From a virus: 50,501 bases of DNA. The notes under the pieces were generated by a model, which searched no databases, was not told the DNA's origin, and worked only from the letters and a program-made list of their open reading frames with translations. The stretch lies in the IMG/VR virus record IMGVR_UViG_3300045988_110337; one strand, 5' to 3'. The first letter of the stretch is position 1; each line of letters opens with the position of its first letter. Shown one piece after another: positions 1 through 50,501 of this stretch. Made by a program: the position numbers and the translations under genes.

Positions 1-99
1 ATTTTTTTGTACCTATAGACAAAACTGCAACAAATGCGGATTTTTTGGGCATTCCATGTTTTCTCGCCGACTGCATACGAGTGCCGCTCGTATGGCAAA
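1..99. repeat. Terminal direct repeat copy 1 (identical to 50403-50501); circular-contig overlap, unit length about 50402 bp
   Basis: ATTTTTTTGTACCTATAGAC...CGTATGGCAAA read at both window ends. Confidence 0.9.
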
Positions 100-350
100 A
101 AAGTTTTGAGCGATTTCTCGGTGATACCAAGTTCTTTTGCTATTTCTGCTCGTGTATATCCTTGAGCGGTGAGTTTAGTTACAATCTCGGCGTTACCTTG
201 CGGGATAATGCCGTTGGTTATCAGCACGCGGTTAACGACTTGATAATTTGTTCCCGCCCTCCGAGCGGTCGCGGCAACACTATTTTCCTCTTCGTATATT
301 TCGAGTATTTTTTGTTCACGTATCATTTCGCGCTCCCACTTTTTAACCAT
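1..350 (-). CDS. Small double-HTH DNA-binding protein (aca-like candidate). The ORF runs off base 1 and closes at TGA 50398-50396 on the circular map (about 119 aa)
   Basis: ATG at 350-348, six nt after GGAGG (361-357). Hand translation: MVKKWEREMIREQKILEIYEEENSVAATARRAGTNYQVVNRVLITNGIIPQGNAEIVTKLTAQGYTRAEIAKELGITEKSLKTFLPYERHSYAVGEKTWNAQKIRICCSFVYRYKKIN. Two HTH-like segments (SVAATARRAGTNYQVV; YTRAEIAKELGITEKSL). Absent from the ORF track only because it crosses the window edge. Confidence 0.6.
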   Translation of the reverse strand, partial: MVKKWEREMIREQKILEIYEEENSVAATARRAGTNYQVVNRVLITNGIIPQGNAEIVTKLTAQGYTRAEIAKELGITEKSLKTFLPYERHSYAVGEKTWNAQKIRICCSFVYRYKK

Positions 351-370
351 TGGGTTCCTCCTTTTGATTT

Positions 371-405
371 AATAAACAAAAAAGTCGGAGTTTCTTTACT
401 CCGAC
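371..405 (-). terminator. Rho-independent terminator (minus strand)
   Basis: Minus strand GTCGGAG-TAAAGAAA-CTCCGAC followed by TTTTTTGTTTATT. Confidence 0.7.
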
Positions 406-421
406 CGTGATATTCAAATTG

Positions 422-504
422 CCGTTAGGGATGCCAATCTCAAGCGGATTGACTATAGATCTTGTAGGATCACCCCCGCACACGCGGGGAATTATCCCTA
501 ACGG
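422..504 (-). ncRNA. Folded RNA element: an 11-bp clamp enclosing a CRISPR-repeat-like hairpin and a second small hairpin
   Basis: 422-432 CCGTTAGGGAT is the exact reverse complement of 494-504 ATCCCTAACGG. The interior holds CCCCGC/GCGGGG and CAATC/GATTG stems. Confidence 0.5.
467..494 (-). CRISPR. Solitary type I-E-like CRISPR repeat unit (single copy, no cas genes)
   Basis: Minus strand TAATTCCCCGCGTGTGCGGGGGTGATCC: 6-bp stem, 4-nt loop, and a GCGGGGGTGATCC 3' part as I recall it from Streptococcus/Lactobacillus I-E repeats. Confidence 0.55.
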
Positions 505-553
505 TGACTTAATTATATCTCACAATATCGGATTTGTCAAGTGCTTTTATAAA

Positions 554-856
554 TTAAATTGAGTCATGAGGTGTTATGTACACATTGCCACCAAAAAGAT
601 ACCCTGTTGTCATGTCATAATGAGCTTTAACACCACTTGGATAGCAGACTTTCTTAAGTTTTCGCACTTCTCCATGTATGCATCCGAGTCCTCGGGTAAC
701 TCTGCCTCTTTCGTCACATGGATCATCGCAAAGCCACTTTAAACCGTCAATAAAATCTTCTTTGTTTATGCCTTGGTATTCGTGCCAATTTTGGTAAACT
801 CTTGACTTGTCTTCCTCAACGAGTTTCTTCTTGACTTCAAAATAGTATTTATTCAT
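554..856 (-). CDS. Hypothetical 100-aa Cys/His-containing protein (anti-CRISPR candidate by context only)
   Basis: ORF with AAGGAG RBS, directly downstream of a consensus promoter and upstream of the repeat unit. Confidence 0.6.
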   Translation of the reverse strand: MNKYYFEVKKKLVEEDKSRVYQNWHEYQGINKEDFIDGLKWLCDDPCDERGRVTRGLGCIHGEVRKLKKVCYPSGVKAHYDMTTGYLFGGNVYITPHDSI

Positions 857-879
857 GTTTTTTCTCCTTGTTTTTGTTC

Positions 880-931
880 TTTTGTTTACGCTTATATTAT
901 ACCACCCATTGGCGCATTTGTCAATAGGTTT
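880..931. repeat. 52-bp promoter cassette, copy A (identical to 50322-50373)
   Basis: TTTTGTTTACGCTTATATTATACCACCCATTGGCGCATTTGTCAATAGGTTT present at both sites. Confidence 0.9.
896..924 (-). promoter_or_regulatory. Consensus sigma-A/70 promoter (TTGACA-17-TGgTATAAT), leftward
   Basis: Minus strand -35 TTGACA (924-919), 17-nt spacer, extended -10 TGGTATAAT (904-896). Confidence 0.7.
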
Positions 932-957: not shown

Positions 958-1215
958 TTATTTTTCGACAACGTTTGTGATTACGTCGTCCACTACTTTC
1001 TCCGTTCCCTCGTCGGATATGGTGACGAGGACGGAAGAGCCGGACGTGATAGACCGGTCGAAATAACTCCACACGTTGCCGTCGTTGGTGACGATGTAGC
1101 CACAGACGCTGTTGACGGCGGTATATGTGCCGCTCTGGTAACGCTCCTGCTTGATGGGAGAGCAGGAGACTATTCCCAGCAGGATGATGAGGGCGAGTGA
1201 TGTAAGTTTCTTCAT
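958..1215 (-). CDS. Small lipoprotein (superinfection-exclusion candidate)
   Basis: MKKLTSLALIILLGIVSC: signal peptide with lipobox IVSC; RBS GAAGAGGT. Confidence 0.65.
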   Translation of the reverse strand: MKKLTSLALIILLGIVSCSPIKQERYQSGTYTAVNSVCGYIVTNDGNVWSYFDRSITSGSSVLVTISDEGTEKVVDDVITNVVEK

Positions 1216-1328
1216 GATTCAAACCTCTTCGAGGATTCCTTTGATTCGATATTTTTTCATTGTTATTTGCTCCATTGCTTTTCGTTTCGCTCTTGCTCTT
1301 CAGAGCCGGACTTTTACCGGCTGACGAT

Positions 1329-1344
1329 TCCCGCCGAAGCGGGA
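1329..1344 (-). other. Intercistronic GC hairpin with UUCG tetraloop
   Basis: Minus strand TCCCGC-TTCG-GCGGGA, with no U tract after it. Confidence 0.6.
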
Positions 1345-1353
1345 TAACTTTTA

Positions 1354-2154: not shown

Positions 2155-2396
2155 TGTCTTGTTCCTTTCTTTTCGGCTGTCGGAGCTTGTGACCGTCTGC
2201 CGGGCTGCATTAACGGGATTTCTCCCGCCACTCTGCTATATTTCTACGTGCTCGGCGATGTAAATAAAAGTTTGACCTTTGTGCACTTCCAAGATGATAA
2301 AATGTGTCCAATCGATTTTAATTTAGCTTTCCGCGACCCCTTGCGGGGTTTCGGCTGGTTGCCGACCAGCCATCATCAGGCGGAGTTTAGACTAGT

Positions 2397-4795: not shown

Positions 4796-6422
4796 TAGGC
4801 GTTATCTTGACGTAGCGGAAAATATTCTTTCTCACATCAAAGCCGAGCCTGAGAACATGAAACATTATACGGCTATGTATTCGGTGCTGTCTTCGATGAA
4901 TAGCTGTGCGGAAAAGTGGCGGTATTCGGAGGTTTTGAAGAGATATTGCACCGAGCGAATTATACAAAATAAATCGAAAGACGCAAGTTCTCTTTTTAAG
5001 GCTGTGCTTTTGCTTGAAGCGCAGGGATTAAGGCTTGACAGCTATATGCAGTATATAGAGCTTCAGCGAGAGCCGGAGAAAAGATTCTGGATTCCGCGAA
5101 GAAAGCAGCTCGAGCCTGTATGCCGCGCAATGCAAAAACTTGTGGACGGAGAACTTGACATATTATCTATATCTGTTCCGCCCGGTTGCGGCAAAAGCAC
5201 GCTTGAAATTTTCCTGCATTCGATGATGATAGGCGCGTTTCCCGACAGCTGTTCCCTTGCTTCGGGACATTCGGGAACGCTTACTAACTCAATATATGAC
5301 GGCGTAAACAGCATTCTTTCAGACCCTGATTATTTATGGCACGACGTGTACCCTGCCGCAGGCACGATTATAACCAATGCAAAGGAACAGACAATAGACC
5401 TCGGCAAGAAACACCGCTTTTCGTCTCTTACCTGCCGTGCTATAGGTGCTTCCCTTACAGGTGCTACGCGTTGTGAAAAGCTTCTGACCGCCGATGACCT
5501 TGTGTCGGGTATTGAGGAAGCATTGAGCATAGACCGTCTTGACAAGCTCTGGACGGCTTACACAAACGATTTGAAGTCAAGAAAGAAGCTGAATTGTAAG
5601 GAACTGCACATTGCTACAAGATGGTCGGTGCATGACCCTATAGGGAGACTGCAAACAATGTACGCGGATTCTCCGAAAGCTCAGTTTCTCGTAATGCCTG
5701 CGGTTGACGAGGACGGCGAAAGCAATTTCAATTACCGCTATGGTGTCGGCTTTGATAAGGCGTACTTCGAGGACATGAAAAACAACCTCGACGATTGTTC
5801 ATGGCGGGCTTTGTTTATGAATCAGCCGATAGAGCGCGAGGGACTTCTCTACAACGAGGACGAACTCAGACGTTATTTTGAACTTCCATCGGATTCGCCG
5901 GACGCTGTTATATCTGTGTGTGACACAAAGGACAAAGGGGCGGACTACTGTGTAATGCCTATTGCTTACCAGTACGGCAATGACTTCTACATCGAAGAAA
6001 TAATCTGCGACAACAGTAATCCCGAAATAGTTGAAACAAGGCTAGTTGAGGTTCTTTTACGGCACAAAGTCAAATTGAGCCGCTTTGAATCAAACTCTGC
6101 GGGCGGAAAAATCGCGGAAAAGGTTCAAAAAGAGGTAAAATCGCGCGGCGGAATCACAAGGATTACTACAAAATATTCGACAGCAAACAAGGCTACGCGA
6201 ATTATAGTTGATTCTCCGTTTGTCAAAGAGCATTTCCTATTCAAAGATAACAGCATTATAAAGAACAACAAAGAGTATAAACGCGCTCTCGGTATGCTTT
6301 GCAGTTATACTATGGCGGGAAGAAACGCACATGACGATGTACCCGACGCATTCTCAATGCTTTCAGACTTCATTCAATCATTTGAGACGCAGACGGTAAG
6401 ATTAATACAAAGACCTTATTGA
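4752..6422 (+). CDS. terL: Terminase large subunit
   Basis: Walker A PPGCGKST; ATRWSVHDPIG; nuclease-domain motifs VCDTKDKGADY and HDDVPDAFSM. Confidence 0.9.
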   Translation: MEALQAEIMAGEHTDRRYLDVAENILSHIKAEPENMKHYTAMYSVLSSMNSCAEKWRYSEVLKRYCTERIIQNKSKDASSLFKAVLLLEAQGLRLDSYMQYIELQREPEKRFWIPRRKQLEPVCRAMQKLVDGELDILSISVPPGCGKSTLEIFLHSMMIGAFPDSCSLASGHSGTLTNSIYDGVNSILSDPDYLWHDVYPAAGTIITNAKEQTIDLGKKHRFSSLTCRAIGASLTGATRCEKLLTADDLVSGIEEALSIDRLDKLWTAYTNDLKSRKKLNCKELHIATRWSVHDPIGRLQTMYADSPKAQFLVMPAVDEDGESNFNYRYGVGFDKAYFEDMKNNLDDCSWRALFMNQPIEREGLLYNEDELRRYFELPSDSPDAVISVCDTKDKGADYCVMPIAYQYGNDFYIEEIICDNSNPEIVETRLVEVLLRHKVKLSRFESNSAGGKIAEKVQKEVKSRGGITRITTKYSTANKATRIIVDSPFVKEHFLFKDNSIIKNNKEYKRALGMLCSYTMAGRNAHDDVPDAFSMLSDFIQSFETQTVRLIQRPY

Positions 6423-6429
6423 GGTGGCT

Positions 6430-6606
6430 ATGGAAGAAGAGAAACACGCGCACCGTCTCAAGTACGTCAAAGAAGACGCGCTTATTATAATCAACGAGAT
6501 TTTAGAACGTGGTAATGACGTTAAAATAAAGAAATCTCGCGAAGAGGTCACTATACTTGAAATAACCGCTTCGAGAAAAGCTAAATACACTATAAAAACG
6601 CTGTAA
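6430..6606 (+). CDS. Hypothetical small protein
   Basis: Short ORF between terL and portal, GAGG RBS. Confidence 0.35.
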   Translation: MEEEKHAHRLKYVKEDALIIINEILERGNDVKIKKSREEVTILEITASRKAKYTIKTL

Positions 6607-6644
6607 CAATCGGGTTGCAGTAAGAGCCGATAGGGGCTATTCGT

Positions 6645-8168
6645 ATGGAAAACATACGGGTAGTTCCTATTTTTGTTTACACGGAGGTTTTTCTTGTGCT
6701 TGAAAATGATATTGTTCGCCTTGCTACTTGTGATAGCCTTCATGGTCGGCGAAAGATACTAACGAACAAACAAAAAATAACCAGCGACAATGTTGTGTTC
6801 GTGCTTGGAAATTCACTCGGCTTCGACAGCGCAAATGTCGCGGAAATAAATTACTTATATGACGTTTATCGCGGAATAATGGATATCCGCTATAAAGACA
6901 AATCCGTGAGACCCGACAACAACAACAAGGTCACTATCAACCTTCCGAACAAGATAGTTACTTTTAAATCCTCGTTCTTCCTAAGCTCTCCCATTCAGTA
7001 TGTAGCGGCTAACGGAAAAGAGGATATATCCGACAAGGTAGCTTATCTGAACGTTCTTATGACTTCCGAAGGAAAAGAATCAAAGGACAAAGAGTGCTCG
7101 GACTGGATGCACATCTGCGGAGTTGAACCGAGGATGGTTCTTCCCGACCCCGACAACGAGAAAGACGGCAGTCCCGCAGCTCTTTATTCCCTTGACCCGA
7201 GAGAAGCGTTTGTTATCTACTCTTCGGGCATTGGCAGAAAACCTCTCGCGGGTGTACTGAAACAGTACGACGAGGACGATAACCTCATTTACTACGTTTA
7301 TGTGCCGGAAGGAAGATACACCGTAAAGGGTAATGACGTTGTAGACTGGCTTGCTTACGACTTCGGGCGCGTTCCGATAGTGGAATATCCGCTGAATGAA
7401 GCTCGTTTGGGAGCGTTTGAGACGGTTCTCTCGCCTATCAACATGATAAACACTCTTGAGTCCGCTCGTGTTGACAATGTTGTTGACTTTGTAAACGCCT
7501 ATGACGTGTTCCAAAACTGCGAAATCGACGAGAACACATACAAGGAACTTGCAAGGGGCGGTCAGTGTATCTGCATCAGAAGCGGTCAGGGAACGGAAGC
7601 AAAGGTTTACCGCATATCCTCTGAAATCTCGCAGACGGGCGTTCAGACGGAAATAGACGCGCTGTATGACTACATTGATGAAATAACGGGTATGCCGACA
7701 AGAGCCGGAGATTCAGCCGCAGCAGACACGGGCATGGGAACGAGATTCCGCAACGGTTGGCAGGATGCTTCCGCGAGAGCTAACGACACTGAAAAGCTAT
7801 TTGCGCGTTCAGAAAGAGAGATTCTGAAGCTGATTCTCAAAATTTACAAAGACAAGGGCATTCTCGACCTTGACCCGACTGACGTTAAGATTCAGTTTAC
7901 CCGCGAAAACCTCACCGACATTCAATCGAAAGCACAGGTTCTTTGCGAACTGCTCAACAATGAAAAGGTTCATCCGCGCGACGCTTACGACATTTCCGGT
8001 TTGTTTACAGATGTAGAAAATGCATATCAGCGCGGTATGGAGTGGTATGAAGAAGCACAGTCCGAGCTTGAAAACAGCTTAGAAAAGGAGCTTGAGAATG
8101 CAAGAACGTTACATAACGACGGACAGAGCGATAGAAATACTGCGGAAGAAGACAATACGGCGGTTTGA
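6645..8168 (+). CDS. Portal protein (SPP1 gp6-like). The true start may be GTG 6696, which follows a GGAGG
   Basis: Size, position after terL, and portal-like core. Confidence 0.8.
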   Translation: MENIRVVPIFVYTEVFLVLENDIVRLATCDSLHGRRKILTNKQKITSDNVVFVLGNSLGFDSANVAEINYLYDVYRGIMDIRYKDKSVRPDNNNKVTINLPNKIVTFKSSFFLSSPIQYVAANGKEDISDKVAYLNVLMTSEGKESKDKECSDWMHICGVEPRMVLPDPDNEKDGSPAALYSLDPREAFVIYSSGIGRKPLAGVLKQYDEDDNLIYYVYVPEGRYTVKGNDVVDWLAYDFGRVPIVEYPLNEARLGAFETVLSPINMINTLESARVDNVVDFVNAYDVFQNCEIDENTYKELARGGQCICIRSGQGTEAKVYRISSEISQTGVQTEIDALYDYIDEITGMPTRAGDSAAADTGMGTRFRNGWQDASARANDTEKLFARSEREILKLILKIYKDKGILDLDPTDVKIQFTRENLTDIQSKAQVLCELLNNEKVHPRDAYDISGLFTDVENAYQRGMEWYEEAQSELENSLEKELENARTLHNDGQSDRNTAEEDNTAV

Positions 8169-29343: not shown

Positions 29344-29389
29344 GTTTTCAACAATGTTTTCAACATAGTTTTGCACAGAGTTTTCAACA
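29344..29389. promoter_or_regulatory. Four GTTTTCAACA boxes at exact 12-bp phasing just upstream of rep (operator candidate)
   Basis: 29344, 29356, 29368 (variant GTTTTGCACA), 29380; one further copy at 29081. Confidence 0.5.
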
Positions 29390-29403
29390 TGAAGGGAGTA
29401 ACC

Positions 29404-30096
29404 ATGAAAAATAGCGATAAAAATATTAATAATTTAGTTGTCAAAAAGAACGAACTAATTCAAAAGTCAAGATACGGAATGACAACACAGGAGCAAAAAG
29501 TCATATTGTATACGATAAGCAAGGTAAAACCCGATGATAAAGAACTTTATGAGTATGATTTCAATCTGCAAGATATGTGTGAAGCACTTGGAATTACTCA
29601 AAACGGCAAGAATTACAAGAATCTCCGTGAAACGCTTCAATCCATACGCGACAAGTCATTCTGGATAGTGGACGGAAATGTAAGAAAACTATGCGCATGG
29701 ATTTCGGGTGCGGAAATATACGAAAATGAATCGCGGGTTAGGATTCAGCTTGACAAGCGGCTGGCACCTTATTTGCTTGAACTCAAAGAATCGTATACGG
29801 CATATCAGCTTCAAACCGTGTTAAACATGGAATCGAAACACACTATACGTTTGTACGAGATACTTAAAAGCTATGACAATATAGGCGAGTACACCGTTTC
29901 TGTTGAAAATTTGAAAACGCTTATGCAAATAGGCGGTTACTCGGATTTTATTGATTTTCGCAAGCGCGTAATCGACACTGCCGTTGACGAAATTAACGCC
30001 GTTAGTGATTTGCGTGTAGCCTATGAGCCGAAACGGACGGGAAGGAGTATAACTCACATTAAATTCTCAATCACAAAAGCAAGGAGTAATCCATGA
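29404..30096 (+). CDS. Rep_3-family (RepB-like) theta-replication initiator
   Basis: LVVKKNELIQKSRYGMTTQEQKVILYTISKV... and ...SKHTIRLYEILKSY... are typical of iteron-plasmid initiators; iterons lie immediately upstream. Confidence 0.8.
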   Translation: MKNSDKNINNLVVKKNELIQKSRYGMTTQEQKVILYTISKVKPDDKELYEYDFNLQDMCEALGITQNGKNYKNLRETLQSIRDKSFWIVDGNVRKLCAWISGAEIYENESRVRIQLDKRLAPYLLELKESYTAYQLQTVLNMESKHTIRLYEILKSYDNIGEYTVSVENLKTLMQIGGYSDFIDFRKRVIDTAVDEINAVSDLRVAYEPKRTGRSITHIKFSITKARSNP

Positions 30097-30749: not shown

Positions 30750-30778
30750 TTGACAAACGCGTTTAAACGTGCTATAAT
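30750..30778 (+). promoter_or_regulatory. Consensus promoter TTGACA-17-TGcTATAAT with no ORF downstream
   Basis: TTGACA 30750-30755, 17-nt spacer, TATAAT 30773-30778 preceded by TGC. Confidence 0.7.
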
Positions 30779-44708: not shown

Positions 44709-44737
44709 ATTATATCACCGCGTGTTGTGTTTGTCAA
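44709..44737 (-). promoter_or_regulatory. Early leftward consensus promoter TTGACA-17-TATAAT
   Basis: Minus strand TTGACA (44737-44732), TATAAT (44714-44709). Confidence 0.7.
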
Positions 44738-44830: not shown

Positions 44831-45217
44831 ATGATAGCTGAGAATATAAGAACTTTGAGAAAAGAACTCGGCTTATCACAAACGGAATTCGCCAAAAGAA
44901 TTTACGTCTCGCGCGATGTCATAAGCAATATCGAGTTGAAAAGAGTTGAACCAACTGAGCTAATAGTAAATGTCATATGCGTTGAATTCGGCGTAAATGA
45001 ATCTTGGCTGAAAACTGGCGAAGGCAATATGTTCCAATTGAAAGTCGCTGAAGACAAGATATTTGATGCATTCGGCAAACTGGCTCATGAAGCGGATTCT
45101 TCGTTTGTTAAACAGTTTGTGGCGGCACTTGCAGAACTTACGCCTGAAGAGTGGAAGACAATAGAAAACTTTGCTTGGAAAGTAGTCGAACGTCAGAAAG
45201 AAGCAGACGATAAGTAA
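44831..45217 (+). CDS. XRE/CI-type repressor
   Basis: IRTLRKELGLSQTEFAKRIYVSRDVISNIELKRVEP HTH; divergent from the early operon. Confidence 0.8.
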   Translation: MIAENIRTLRKELGLSQTEFAKRIYVSRDVISNIELKRVEPTELIVNVICVEFGVNESWLKTGEGNMFQLKVAEDKIFDAFGKLAHEADSSFVKQFVAALAELTPEEWKTIENFAWKVVERQKEADDK

Positions 45218-49273: not shown

Positions 49274-49310
49274 GATTGTACTCCTTTATTTTCCTTATTT
49301 TTGATACCTC

Positions 49311-49324
49311 CCTCCGAAGAGGGA
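49311..49324 (-). other. Intercistronic hairpin with UUCG tetraloop
   Basis: Minus strand CCCTC-TTCG-GAGGG. Confidence 0.6.
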
Positions 49325-49369
49325 ACGCACCGAGCCTGAATCCTATTTAGAGCCGCTCGGTCGGCTTGA

Positions 49370-50293
49370 TTAAAGGACCGCCCCCTCTGGGAAACAGTCG
49401 CACTTTGCCAGCTTTTCGATGAGCTCTACTTGTGTCATGTGGTAGCCGGGTTCGGCGAGTCTCTTAATCGTGTGAGCGTAGCTGTGCTCATCGTCGTAGT
49501 AGTCGTTTTTCTCGTCGTCGTCATATTTCTCGTGATATTCGCCGATGATGTCTAGTGCGTACTCCTTGTATACGTAGCACTTTTGTGCGAAAATGTCGTC
49601 GATGAGGCGGAGAAAACCGTATCTTTTAATAGCTTCCTCGGCGGTGATTCGCTTGCCCTGGTCGATGATGACCTCCTTGGCGAGCTCGGCGAAGGAGTAG
49701 GAGAAGCTGAGTTCAACCGCACTGCTGTGCTTGGTTTCGAGGAGCTCTCGGAGTTCGATTGCCCCCTCCGTGTCCTCGTCGGCTACCTTGAGAAGATTTC
49801 CGTCGTCGATGACGTAAGAATAAAGGAGGTTTTCGGCGGGCTGCGTGTTGAGAATGATGTGGAGTTCGGGAGATGACTCAAAAGCTATCTCGTAGCCGTC
49901 GACACCTCCGTCAGTCGGGAGGTCGTCGGGGCGGCGTGAGCGGCGAGAATGGGAATCTTCCCATTTGTCGATTCTCTCGGCTATGAAGCGAGCATCTTCT
50001 ACTGCTTCGGCGAATCCGTAGTAAACTTTGGTGTCGCCGTCGTAGGGGTAGTCTTCGTGGAGGAGAGCGATTCTCACCGCCCAGCTTTTGGGTTCTTCCG
50101 GCTCGTCGTCGGGCTGGTAGCTGTCGGCTACCCAGTCGAGGTCTTCGTATGAGTATTCCTCGCCGTCGATGATGTAGGTCTGGTCTTCGGTGGCTTCCGC
50201 TCCTGCCCACTCGATAGCTTCGTCGAGGGTGAGGTTTTCTCCGCCGAGAACTGAATAGAGGGTTTTTCCTGTGTTTTTGTCGATAAGCTTCAT
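49370..50293 (-). CDS. Highly acidic 307-aa protein (DNA-mimic / anti-restriction candidate)
   Basis: 15 of the first 60 residues are D/E against 3 K/R (hand count). Acidic runs such as DDEPEEP and EKYDDDEKNDYYDDE. Driven by a consensus promoter. Confidence 0.6.
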   Translation of the reverse strand: MKLIDKNTGKTLYSVLGGENLTLDEAIEWAGAEATEDQTYIIDGEEYSYEDLDWVADSYQPDDEPEEPKSWAVRIALLHEDYPYDGDTKVYYGFAEAVEDARFIAERIDKWEDSHSRRSRRPDDLPTDGGVDGYEIAFESSPELHIILNTQPAENLLYSYVIDDGNLLKVADEDTEGAIELRELLETKHSSAVELSFSYSFAELAKEVIIDQGKRITAEEAIKRYGFLRLIDDIFAQKCYVYKEYALDIIGEYHEKYDDDEKNDYYDDEHSYAHTIKRLAEPGYHMTQVELIEKLAKCDCFPEGAVL

Positions 50294-50321
50294 GATTTTT
50301 CTCCTTTTGTTTCGTTCTTTC

Positions 50322-50373
50322 TTTTGTTTACGCTTATATTATACCACCCATTGGCGCATTTGTCAATAGGTTT
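50322..50373. repeat. 52-bp promoter cassette, copy B (identical to 880-931)
   Basis: Same 52-mer. Confidence 0.9.
50338..50366 (-). promoter_or_regulatory. Consensus promoter TTGACA-17-TGgTATAAT, leftward
   Basis: Minus strand TTGACA (50366-50361), TATAAT (50343-50338). Confidence 0.7.
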
Positions 50374-50402
50374 TGATAAATTTCTTTTGATTTTCTCAAT
50401 TT

Positions 50403-50501
50403 ATTTTTTTGTACCTATAGACAAAACTGCAACAAATGCGGATTTTTTGGGCATTCCATGTTTTCTCGCCGACTGCATACGAGTGCCGCTCGTATGGCAA
50501 A
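50403..50501. repeat. Terminal direct repeat copy 2 (identical to 1-99)
   Basis: Same 99 bases as window start. Confidence 0.9.

Follow-up and report, generated by a model that had tools for sequence, protein, structure and literature searches.

A mobile phage cassette carrying a small gene and a candidate type I-E RNA anti-CRISPR upstream of a resident double-HTH gene

The window (the whole 50,501-nt stretch of viral DNA analysed here) carries a single type I-E CRISPR repeat immediately behind its own consensus promoter, and its sequence indicates that the predicted repeat RNA of this gut phage is most likely an RNA anti-CRISPR of known kind. The locus appears best explained as two units with different histories: a cassette (~877..290), comprising a 100-aa ORF (ORF100) and the repeat RNA gene, and a double-HTH gene. 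We give roughly an even chance to the fuller reading, in which a mobile cassette of ORF100 and a Racr-type or crRNA-like anti-CRISPR RNA recombined upstream of a resident HTH gene. The original prediction had interpreted the same locus as an acr-aca-like operon, consisting of a promoter, a small ORF, a CRISPR repeat, a terminator and a Shine-Dalgarno-led double-HTH gene. Re-analysis of the sequence recovered each of these parts, all five on the minus strand (Table 1), and partly supported the operon interpretation.

A terminal redundancy of 99 nt reduces the window to a circular unit of 50,402 bp. The junction is confirmed by an independent contig (L062), which is 100% identical over window positions 931..1/50402..50319, so that the HTH gene does close on the circle, as had been proposed, and is missing from the ORF list because it crosses the window edge. 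Among the proteins encoded in the window are a terminase, Peptidase_M23, RecT, G39P and SSB; no cas match was seen, and searches for annotated relatives gave 0 matches in GenBank phages or PLSDB plasmids.

Table 1. Features of the cassette, the HTH gene and the associated promoters, with positions in the window
Feature	Position	Strand	Basis or remark
P1, consensus sigma-70 promoter TTGACA-17-TGgTATAAT	896..924	-	12/12 match, extended -10
Exchanged ORF100 and RNA cassette, high-identity block of ~590 bp	290..877	-	Identity to L011, L001 and L063
ORF100, 100-aa protein, candidate partner or Acr	554..856	-	ATG start, AAGGAG Shine-Dalgarno
Ps, further perfect promoter (TTGACA-17-TATAAT), serving the repeat RNA only	512..540	-	12/12 match
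Predicted small RNA gene, ~130 nt	372..505	-	Closing stem, I-E repeat hairpin, spacer-length segment, terminator
Closing stem, 5' arm (CCGUUAGGGAU)	494..504	-	Inverted repeat; paired in MFE and centroid structures
Solitary type I-E repeat unit (TAATTCCCCGCGTGTGCGGGGGTGATCC), crRNA-sense	467..494	-	25-nt core exact in 14 genome loci
Spacer-like segment, 34 nt	433..466	-	U466 completes the 8-nt handle; 32-nt guide equivalent at 465..434
Closing stem, 3' arm (AUCCCUAACGG)	422..432	-	Inverted repeat; paired in MFE and centroid structures
Intrinsic terminator: 9-bp stem, 6-nt loop, U-run	371..406	-	Terminator scan
Double-HTH gene, main part (residues 1-116 of 118)	1..350	-	GGAGGA Shine-Dalgarno, ATG at 350
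Double-HTH gene, last two codons and stop, across the junction	50396..50402	-	Junction confirmed by L062
P2, duplicate of P1	50338..50366	-	Drives ORF307 (50293..49370), then Pistol ribozyme

A solitary type I-E repeat with its own promoter and terminator

The core of the repeat (491..467, 25 of 28 nt) is an exact match to genuine type I-E arrays of 28-nt repeats and 33-nt spacers, which form 61-nt periodic arrays in 14 genome loci. These arrays belong to Lachnospiraceae, Kineothrix, Ruminococcus and others, and the phage's own host may differ. The 70 spacers taken from the 14 array loci gave only chance-level matches to the window. In one locus (L014), an array of this repeat adjoins a complete I-E cas operon (cse1-cse2-cas7e-cas5e-cas6e-cas1-cas2). 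The window holds a single copy of the repeat, even when up to 3 mismatches are allowed. Neither a second repeat nor a hairpin follows the 34-nt spacer-like segment, and the sequence beyond it (CATCCCTAACGGCAATTT...) bears no similarity to the repeat.

A second perfect promoter (Ps), overlooked in the original prediction, lies between ORF100 and the repeat. Its -10 box ends 17 nt ahead of the repeat on the strand that gives the crRNA sense, and its sequence is invariant in all five cassette copies. Racr candidates are recognized by a predicted promoter at most 250 bp upstream of the repeat and in sense orientation, and Ps is such a promoter. The CRISPR-repeat element reported previously is thus upheld, as a promoter-driven, sense-oriented, solitary type I-E repeat that makes a Racr-type candidate. 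Judging by the spacing to Ps, transcription would start at about A505.

Folding of the predicted RNA (372..505) gave an MFE of -58.3 kcal/mol (z = -6.8), with the hairpin of the repeat present in the MFE structure, and its 84-nt core (505..422) gave -40.7 kcal/mol (z = -6.2). The closing stem is a perfect 11 bp, a length for which the rough chance expectation is ~0.002 in 140 nt. A single substitution in its 3' arm in L001 turns a G-C into a G-U pair, and the five copies of the RNA region differ at 2 of ~220 positions. The 11-nt arms were also considered as an operator for the HTH protein and rejected, the arm motif being confined to the five cassette-bearing loci. No Rfam family was found for the repeat RNA; in a 200-nt search the best match, STnc100, reached 12.9 bits where the gathering score is 47. 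The terminator stem (406..383) is followed by TTTTTTGTTTATT and folds at -17 kcal/mol (z = -4.5). A terminator had been placed here previously (371-405) and described as leaky; it is present, but it carries no sequence sign of leakiness and appears strong.

Phage genomes occasionally capture fragments of host arrays, and several IMG/VR contigs with this repeat are plain arrays. It is nonetheless very improbable that the repeat is a non-functional relic of a host array, acquired by illegitimate recombination and flanked by coincidental signals. Against such an origin, a 12/12 promoter is correctly spaced and oriented, a terminator follows, and the perfect closing stem begins at the predicted 5' end of the RNA. 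Moreover, the Cas6e hairpin and handle are intact, and only the less critical first three bases differ from the array repeats. In L001, L011 and L063, the noncoding RNA gene is also better conserved than the flanking coding sequence.

A possible, if rather unlikely, alternative is that the RNA is a working guide (viral crRNA-like) and not a decoy. Three forms of such a guide are conceivable. As a Cracr-type RNA, it would redirect host Cascade so that a cas or toxin promoter is repressed; it could instead be a full guide aimed at a competing mobile element, or a circularly permuted single-repeat crRNA, whose closing stem places the Cas6e-bound hairpin at the spacer's 3' end. The order of repeat, spacer-like segment and rho-independent terminator is that of CracrVA1 (bioRxiv 10.1101/2024.10.29.618823), and the 34 nt of the segment approximate the 33-nt spacers of the host arrays. 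The 5' handle (8 nt, GUGAUCCU) is complete and U-terminated, as in many host units, and the segment by itself shows no unusual degree of structure (z = -1.2). Promoter-driven repeat-spacer-truncated-repeat units of the same subtype also occur in other phages, some of them with a closing stem (L105, L123, L110 and L088). A segment of exact spacer length with an intact 5' handle would suit a guide no less than a pure decoy. However, no protospacer for the segment was found in IMG/VR or in a metagenome scan (27 fixed positions), and the window contains no self-target besides the segment's own locus. Across 459 kb of I-E loci from hosts and viruses, PAM-proximal runs of at least 9 occurred at chance level (3 observed versus 3.5 expected). 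In addition, a single repeat and hairpin would yield no canonical Cas6e-capped crRNA by the normal route, and the segment is of full spacer length, whereas I-E Cracr arrays are described with 21-24-nt spacers (bioRxiv 10.1101/2024.10.29.618823).

The third of these forms, a circularly permuted crRNA gene with a single repeat, is improbable in its own right. Cas6e would cut past the hairpin, and the 11-bp closing stem would hold the two resulting fragments annealed. The 3' end of the spacer (32-33 nt) would thereby come to lie beside AAU and the Cas6e-bound hairpin at a three-way junction, and the handle, spacer, GUGUU and hairpin geometry of a canonical crRNA would be obtained from one repeat instead of two. 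If this were true, the phage could supply its own guide to a complete host Cascade instead of merely absorbing Cas proteins.

Exchange of the cassette and the ORF100 family

The cassette (877..~290) is 96-99.5% identical to its counterparts in L011, L001 and L063, whereas the rest of the HTH gene is 68-84% identical. Broken down by gene, identity in these three contigs is 96% for ORF100, 99-99.5% for the RNA gene (100% in L062) and 82% for the flanking HTH gene. The edges are marked by a loss of homology upstream of 877 and by a fall in identity past ~290. All five copies sit directly upstream of this HTH family, and in L001, L011 and L063 a Pistol ribozyme and another gene, not P1, precede ORF100.

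Beyond these copies, the I-E repeat was absent from 35 other viral loci with ORF100 relatives, and relatives of ORF100 and of the HTH protein were absent from 49 other viral loci with this repeat subtype. A recurrent association of the repeat with either ORF100 or the HTH gene is thereby ruled out, and the link between ORF100 and the RNA derives from one cassette lineage.

ORF100 ends 14 nt upstream of the -35 box of the repeat RNA promoter. It had been described as a 100-aa Cys/His ORF of no recognisable family; the ORF stands at 554-856, but it matches phrog_35298 (E = 1.4e-7), and its family comprises 171 representative clusters of hypothetical phage proteins at E ≤ 1e-3. The invariant residues of this family are W24, F35 and W41. 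Neither the cysteines nor the Cys/His residues as a set are conserved, which rules out a Cys/His zinc protein. Between ORF100 and its copy in L011, 12 nt but only 3 aa differ (9/12 substitutions are synonymous), which points to purifying selection. Together with the large family and a confident AF2 model (pLDDT 95), this indicates that ORF100 is a genuine gene.

Comparison with known proteins did not support the acr-like status given to ORF100 in the original prediction. No match was found in Pfam or PADLOC or among PDB sequences, with no similarity to any solved Acr. Despite the pLDDT of 95, the predicted fold had no match in PDB or BFVD at E ≤ 0.1, and no Pfam domain was found in the fusion partners within longer family members. 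ORF100 was hence rejected as a known Acr or defence-related protein. Its co-travel with the RNA suggests that it may be a partner of that RNA or a protein Acr.

The double-HTH gene and its promoters

The gene downstream of the terminator had been proposed as an SD-led, 119-aa double-HTH protein (350->1, closing at 50396). The gene, its Shine-Dalgarno sequence and its closure hold, but the product is 118 aa long. In relatives, the HTH protein always begins at Met9 (position 326). Only the window and L062 have the ATG at 350 in frame, because the copies differ in the length of an A-run (5, 6 or 7 A). Since homology to relatives stops at position 35, the C-terminal tail (about residue 107 onwards) derives from the promoter element, and the window protein lacks the basic C-terminal tail that is conserved in the family.

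Pfam searches gave sub-threshold matches to HTH_28, HTH_23 and Sigma70_r4_2 at residues 14-43 and 53-85, and an AF2 model (pLDDT 70) predicts two tri-helical units. A search against PDB sequences at E ≤ 10 returned no Aca. The top Foldseek match, a Sulfolobus CRISPR-repeat DNA-binding protein (2lvs), was dismissed as noise (E = 0.32, TM ~0.3, from a pLDDT-70 model). The comparison with Aca proteins and solved regulators through Pfam, PDB sequences and Foldseek thus gave nothing above noise, in contrast to the regulator role that had been predicted.

Homologues of the HTH protein fall into 24 clusters, and the family occurs in at least 20 related protein clusters that have neither ORF100 nor the repeat. 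In those cassette-free phages the gene is located mid-operon, with overlapping genes on both sides. The slot upstream of it is occupied by at least four unrelated gene families across relatives. The genes downstream shuffle too, and a pattern of variable neighbours is therefore not specific to aca loci. The neighbouring genes in relatives yielded no informative annotation from Pfam or PHROG. These comparisons indicate that the HTH gene is a resident, conserved gene of an accessory or early block in this phage group, not a demonstrated anti-CRISPR regulator.

The promoter reported ahead of ORF100 (P1) is perfect, as predicted: TTGACA at 924..919 is followed by a 17-nt spacer and TGgTATAAT ending at 896. 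Its role as a locus-specific acr promoter is not borne out, since P1 is one member of a repeated ~100-nt promoter element. An exact 44-nt duplicate lies at 50366..50323, ahead of an unrelated 307-aa gene, and the similarity between P1 and P2 spans ~115 nt, including the 5'UTR and Shine-Dalgarno sequence. A third, divergent copy is found at 2687, and relatives L008 and L011 have two copies each. Seven 12/12 consensus promoters were counted in this genome. Neither P1 nor Ps contains inverted repeats with arms of at least 6 nt, and the sole palindrome of P1 and P2 is CCAATGG (3-bp arms). A different promoter-spacer palindrome, CCACCGAaTCGGTGG, is present in relatives whose HTH recognition helices are identical, which argues against the HTH protein as an operator-binding autorepressor.

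These results bear on the original model, in which P1 drives an ORF100 (acr)-racr-aca operon and the HTH protein, as an Aca, represses P1 once an early burst is over. The order of small ORF, repeat RNA and HTH gene on one strand agrees with it, as do the consistent adjacency of the cassette to this HTH family, the variable slot ahead of the HTH gene (as at aca-anchored loci) and the promoter scan, which detected no promoter between the terminator and the HTH gene. Moreover, an enrichment of acr genes is reported within 1 kb of racr candidates (PMC10651486). Nonetheless, we assign this model a low probability. P1 is duplicated and generic, also serves ORF307 and is not the element ahead of ORF100 in three of the four other cassette contigs; the genome holds further perfect promoters; and the P1 palindrome is short and differs from that of relatives with the same recognition helices. 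The HTH gene is conserved without the cassette, mid-operon among overlapping neighbours that shuffle, and its product has no significant match to an Aca or solved regulator and lacks the conserved basic tail, while ORF100 has no match to a known Acr. The layout as a whole is therefore probably not a canonical acr-aca locus.

Proposed action and comparison with known systems

Our preferred reading, that of an exchanged cassette with an anti-CRISPR RNA, would proceed as follows. The cassette recombined in directly upstream of the HTH gene. Ps would initiate the RNA around A505 and the terminator (406..371) would end it, leaving the 11-bp closing stem to bracket one I-E repeat and the 34-nt spacer-length segment. 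Made abundantly early in infection, the RNA would be bound by host Cas6e, and its handle-bearing 3' product by Cas5e and Cas7e. Cascade subunits would thereby be diverted from phage-targeting crRNAs, with the RNA acting as a Racr-type decoy or as a non-targeting crRNA competitor, and ORF100, co-travelling with the RNA, could serve as a partner or as a protein Acr. The HTH gene would be transcribed by read-through from P1 or Ps. A strong terminator just upstream of it, and in relatives upstream of another two genes as well, fits poorly with this unless much of the transcription passes it.

Validated Racrs are few, and the tested I-E examples are from Pseudomonas. If the preferred reading is true, the locus would provide a compact, clearly bounded candidate directed at the Firmicutes-type I-E systems found in gut Lachnospiraceae and Ruminococcaceae, and at 590 bp the cassette is small enough to be synthesized and tested unaltered. 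Through its travel with the RNA, ORF100 is also a guilt-by-association lead for its unannotated phage family, which counts more than 170 clusters and has a confident fold that is unmatched in PDB or BFVD. More generally, a strong promoter, a small ORF and an HTH gene are insufficient for an acr-aca call where consensus promoters abound.

The closest likeness is to the Racrs (RacrIE1/IE2; Camara-Wilpert et al. 2023, PMC10651486). In that work, solitary repeats lying behind promoters in viral genomes were found to function as Racrs, including two I-E examples, and an acr-racr bicistron has been documented (AcrIC5-RacrIC1) (PMC10651486), in line with the original statement that RNA anti-CRISPRs are reported beside acr genes. 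As in those systems, a cas-less phage genome holds one repeat copy, immediately past a strong promoter, in sense orientation, with the hairpin preserved and a small ORF directly upstream, and the subtype (I-E) is one with validated Racrs. The repeat here differs in being of the Firmicutes I-E type (...GGGGGTGATCC) and not of the Pseudomonas type, and this repeat unit was not found among the supplementary-table rows of PMC10651486 that were available for comparison. The RNA also has an 11-bp closing stem, an exact spacer-length segment and its own terminator, and the upstream ORF is not a known Acr.

Cracr RNAs are often co-encoded with Acr proteins, and their defining trait is a partial match, over 9 or more PAM-proximal bp, to the cas or creT promoter of a host or to its CreR/CreA (bioRxiv 10.1101/2024.10.29.618823). 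The predicted RNA resembles CracrVA1 in its single repeat-like sequence, spacer-like sequence and terminator, and I-E examples exist. It differs in that this defining match was not found, the 459 kb of I-E loci, from which the phage's own host may differ, giving only chance-level runs. Resemblance to acr-aca loci lies in a strong promoter followed, on the same strand, by a small ORF and an HTH gene, with the HTH gene conserved and its upstream neighbour variable. Unlike in those loci, ORF100 is set apart from the HTH gene by a separate promoter, an RNA gene and a canonical terminator. The HTH protein itself is a tandem double, transposase/sigma-r4-like protein with no detectable Aca relationship, encoded mid-operon in relatives, and P1 is a generic duplicated element with no convincing operator.

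Viral mini-CRISPR arrays are repeat-spacer-repeat units in phages (reviewed in PMC11656645). The locus differs from these in having one repeat only, with no second repeat or hairpin and no target found. It shares with them a promoter, a cas-less genome and a place in an accessory region, and the repeat subtype is common to other IMG/VR phage mini-arrays. The combination of a closing stem and a spacer-length segment recurs in phage I-E mini-arrays, which raises the question of how phage CRISPR-like RNAs are built.

Predicted repeat RNA gene and its promoter

The original prediction read positions 1-931 as an acr-aca-like operon (an anti-CRISPR gene with its regulator), and all five of its elements were found, all on the minus strand (see table). 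Bases 1-99 recur at 50403-50501, giving a circular contig with a unit of 50,402 bp. An independent metagenome contig of 1,015 nt, L062, matches the window at 100% identity along its entire length, from 931 across the origin to 50319; hence, both the circle junction and the unusual C-terminus encoded by the helix-turn-helix (HTH) gene are real.

A second perfect promoter, overlooked in the original prediction, lies between the 100-aa ORF (ORF100) and the CRISPR repeat, its -10 box ending 17 nt ahead of the repeat. By the usual promoter spacing, transcription would start near A505. The 11-nt CCGUUAGGGAU (504..494) begins one base later and is the perfect complement of 432..422. The predicted RNA of ~130 nt comprises, in order, the 5' arm of this closing stem, AAU, the repeat hairpin, the handle GUGAUCCU, 32 nt followed by C, the 3' arm, a 15-nt linker and the terminator. 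Its fold is strong (-58.3 kcal/mol, z = -6.8), as is that of the 84-nt core (z = -6.2), while the 34-nt spacer-like segment alone is unremarkable (z = -1.2).

Judged by sequence, the phage repeat is genuine type I-E. Its 25-nt core, TTCCCCGCGTGTGCGGGGGTGATCC, is matched exactly at 14 genomic loci, including those of Lachnospiraceae, Kineothrix, Ruminococcus, Secundilactobacillus collinoides and Paenibacillus, and 11 of these carry at least two exact copies at 61-nt spacing (28-nt repeat plus 33-nt spacer). Phage and host repeats differ only within the first three bases, and in one Lachnospiraceae locus (L014) the array lies downstream of cse1-cse2-cas7e-cas5e-cas6e-cas1-cas2. The phage repeat is in crRNA-sense orientation relative to its own promoter, and no second copy was found in the window at up to three mismatches.

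Features of the locus and of the circular genome
Feature	Position	Strand	Evidence
Promoter P1, TTGACA-17-TGgTATAAT, 12/12	924..896	-	consensus match
ORF100, 100 aa	856..554	-	ORF listing
Second promoter, TTGACA-17-TATAAT	540..512	-	
One CRISPR repeat	494..467	-	sequence
Terminator, 9-bp stem + U-run	406..371	-	terminator prediction
HTH gene, 118 aa, GGAGGA-led	start 350, across origin, end 50396	-	translation over circle
A-run site in relatives	L001 1141-1170; L011 ~5505-5545; L063		
85-aa ORF	958-1215	-	
Perfect TTGACA-17-TATAAT promoters, whole genome	3205, 30750, 44780	+	
Perfect TTGACA-17-TATAAT promoters, whole genome	50366, 44737, 924, 540	-	
Pistol ribozyme	49302-49366	-	Rfam RF02679, 61.1 bits vs gathering score 34.5
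Type-P5 twister ribozyme	2180-2237	-	RF02684, 46.9 bits vs 37.6
gut-2 RNA motif	6597-6644	+	RF02990, 48.9 bits vs 39.8
Two-hairpin element like sul1 RNA motif	1299-1349	+	28.9 bits, under gathering score 36.2; E = 7e-4, 171-nt search
Rep_3 plasmid-type replication initiator	29371-30096	+	Rep3_N 3e-35, Rep3_C 5e-19

Cassette exchange and the two proteins

The arrangement of ORF100 and RNA is present in four further contigs (L001/L026, L011, L062 and L063). Compared with the window, L001, L011 and L063 are 99-99.5% identical in the intergenic RNA gene, 96% in ORF100 (12 nucleotide and 3 amino acid changes) and 82% in the HTH gene overall, falling to 68-84% in 50-nt windows beyond ~290. Upstream of 877, homology is lost completely; in these relatives ORF100 has a Pistol ribozyme plus another gene in front of it instead of P1. 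This pattern indicates that a ~590-bp block (877..~290) was exchanged between diverged backbones, with the HTH gene as the right-hand homology.

ORF100 has no Pfam match, but matches phrog_35298 (unknown function; 1.4e-7), and an exhaustive search placed it in a family of 171 representative clusters, all unannotated, with invariant W24, F35 and W41 and variable cysteines. An AF2 model (pLDDT 95) has three helices and a three-stranded sheet, with no PDB or BFVD fold match below E = 0.1. ORF100 thus counts as a real, selected accessory gene. Other members were located in accessory regions of prophages, close to lysis genes or to the prophage ends, with neither an I-E repeat nor an HTH gene of this family, and 49 other viral loci with the same repeat subtype have no relative of ORF100 or of the HTH gene. 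The link between ORF100 and CRISPR is accordingly best described as adjacency and co-transfer in this single cassette.

The HTH protein has homologs in 24 clusters (107-113 aa, on phage contigs of ~20-45 kb); every one of them begins at the position of the window's Met9 and carries a conserved basic tail (RERKKEK...) at its C-terminus. In the window this tail is replaced from about residue 107, since homology ends at position 35, where a promoter element begins. Further upstream, the ATG at 350 is followed by an A-run (window 326-350) of five A in the window and L062, six in L001 and seven in L011 and L063; only the five-A form keeps this ATG in frame. In L011 it begins a uORF of nine codons, and the overlap of the uORF's TGA with the conserved Met9 ATG (ATGA) suggests translational coupling. 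In relatives the HTH gene lies in the middle of an operon and overlaps the genes before and after it; the upstream neighbors come from at least four unrelated families, and some neighbors are found upstream in one phage and downstream in another.

Pfam gave only sub-threshold generic HTH matches, in two segments, and two tri-helical units are seen in the AF2 model (pLDDT 70); searches of the PDB by sequence and by fold returned no significant match and no Aca (anti-CRISPR-associated regulator). The recognition helices are identical across phages whose promoter-spacer palindromes differ (CCACCGAaTCGGTGG in L008 and L011, CTATTTGCGCAAATAG at 2687), which argues against the protein being an operator-binding autorepressor. 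The 11-nt stem arms were ruled out as its operator, being confined to cassette loci.

The acr-aca reading is supported only in part: its elements are confirmed and the repeat RNA is a candidate RNA anti-CRISPR (Racr), but P1 is generic, the HTH protein lacks an Aca match and ORF100 is tied to CRISPR by adjacency and co-transfer in one cassette. The evidence best supports a mobile RNA gene of Racr type (or crRNA-like) that, along with an unknown ORF travelling with it, has been inserted in front of a resident double-HTH gene; the accessory block that received it is mosaic, and repeated consensus promoters drive this block. The cassette is a good, compact experimental candidate.

Promoter elements and other genome features

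P1 is a generic promoter. An exact 44-nt copy at 50366..50323, with ~115 nt of similarity including UTR and Shine-Dalgarno, drives an unrelated 307-aa gene and then the Pistol ribozyme, located between ORF307 and ORF298 of that operon. At 2687 there is a third, divergent copy, L008 and L011 have two copies each, and the genome holds seven 12/12 consensus promoters against ~0.006 expected by chance. Several have spacer palindromes, such as that of the 11/12 promoter at 2687 and CGTTTAAACG at 30750; P1 and its copy have CCAATGG only. The ~100-nt element (35/34 boundary; 50334-50402), at whose start homology to relatives' HTH genes stops exactly, appears to be a recombination joint. Back-to-back promoters at 44737/44780 flank a CI-like HTH_19 gene (44831-45217) and look like a genetic switch.

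Directly upstream of P1, the 85-aa ORF has a lipoprotein-type signal (..LLGIVSC..) and no match in a family search, and is typical of candidate morons or superinfection-exclusion genes. In relatives, the Pistol copy is directly upstream of ORF100 (L001, L011, L063) or of a 143-aa gene (L008). The twister ribozyme lies between 63-aa and 266-aa ORFs in the operon of the 2687 promoter, the sul1-like element in the ORF266-ORF85 intergenic region opposite the genes, and the gut-2 motif ends one base short of a 507-aa ORF of the packaging/head region that starts at 6645. The Rep_3 initiator, with no integrase among the ORFs scanned in the window while a serine recombinase is carried by relatives of the HTH block, may indicate a phage-plasmid lifestyle.

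Decoy or guide RNA

Promoter-driven mini-arrays of the same I-E subtype in other IMG/VR phages (L105, L123, L110, L088, L084/L095/L098/L100 and L086/L093/L114/L116) are varied. Some (L105, L123) have 10-11-bp closing stems; L110 and L088 are repeat-spacer-truncated repeat-terminator units; L084/L095/L098/L100 have two units with 24-nt spacers. In some, the second repeat is cut exactly at the Cas6e site with a terminator next, and in one group the I-E repeat is followed, ~32 nt on, by GTGTGTGGATTTAAAC, which resembles a type I-C repeat at its 3' end.

Solitary viral repeats downstream of promoters are reported to work as Racrs that sequester Cas6 and Cas7, with two I-E examples, and to adjoin acr genes more often than expected by chance (PMC10651486). 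Cracrs are the subject of a later preprint (10.1101/2024.10.29.618823): these viral crRNA-like RNAs combine a repeat, a spacer-like sequence and a terminator, and are described as steering Cas proteins to promoters of cas or toxin genes. The short paired spacers of some mini-arrays recall Cracr arrays. For the window's spacer-like segment no target was found: the only match in IMG/VR, a metagenome scan and the window was the locus itself, and across 459 kb of I-E-bearing loci seed matches were no more frequent than chance predicts. Since similar stems enclose the promoter-driven repeat-spacer-truncated-repeat units of L105 and L123, the closing stem may serve generally as a clamp for folding or stability; alternatively, it could allow a single repeat to provide the handle at the 5' end as well as, in trans, the Cas6e hairpin at the 3' end. 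The window RNA agrees with those features of a Racr that can be checked by sequence, and it is likewise compatible with a guide, having an intact handle and a segment of exactly spacer length.
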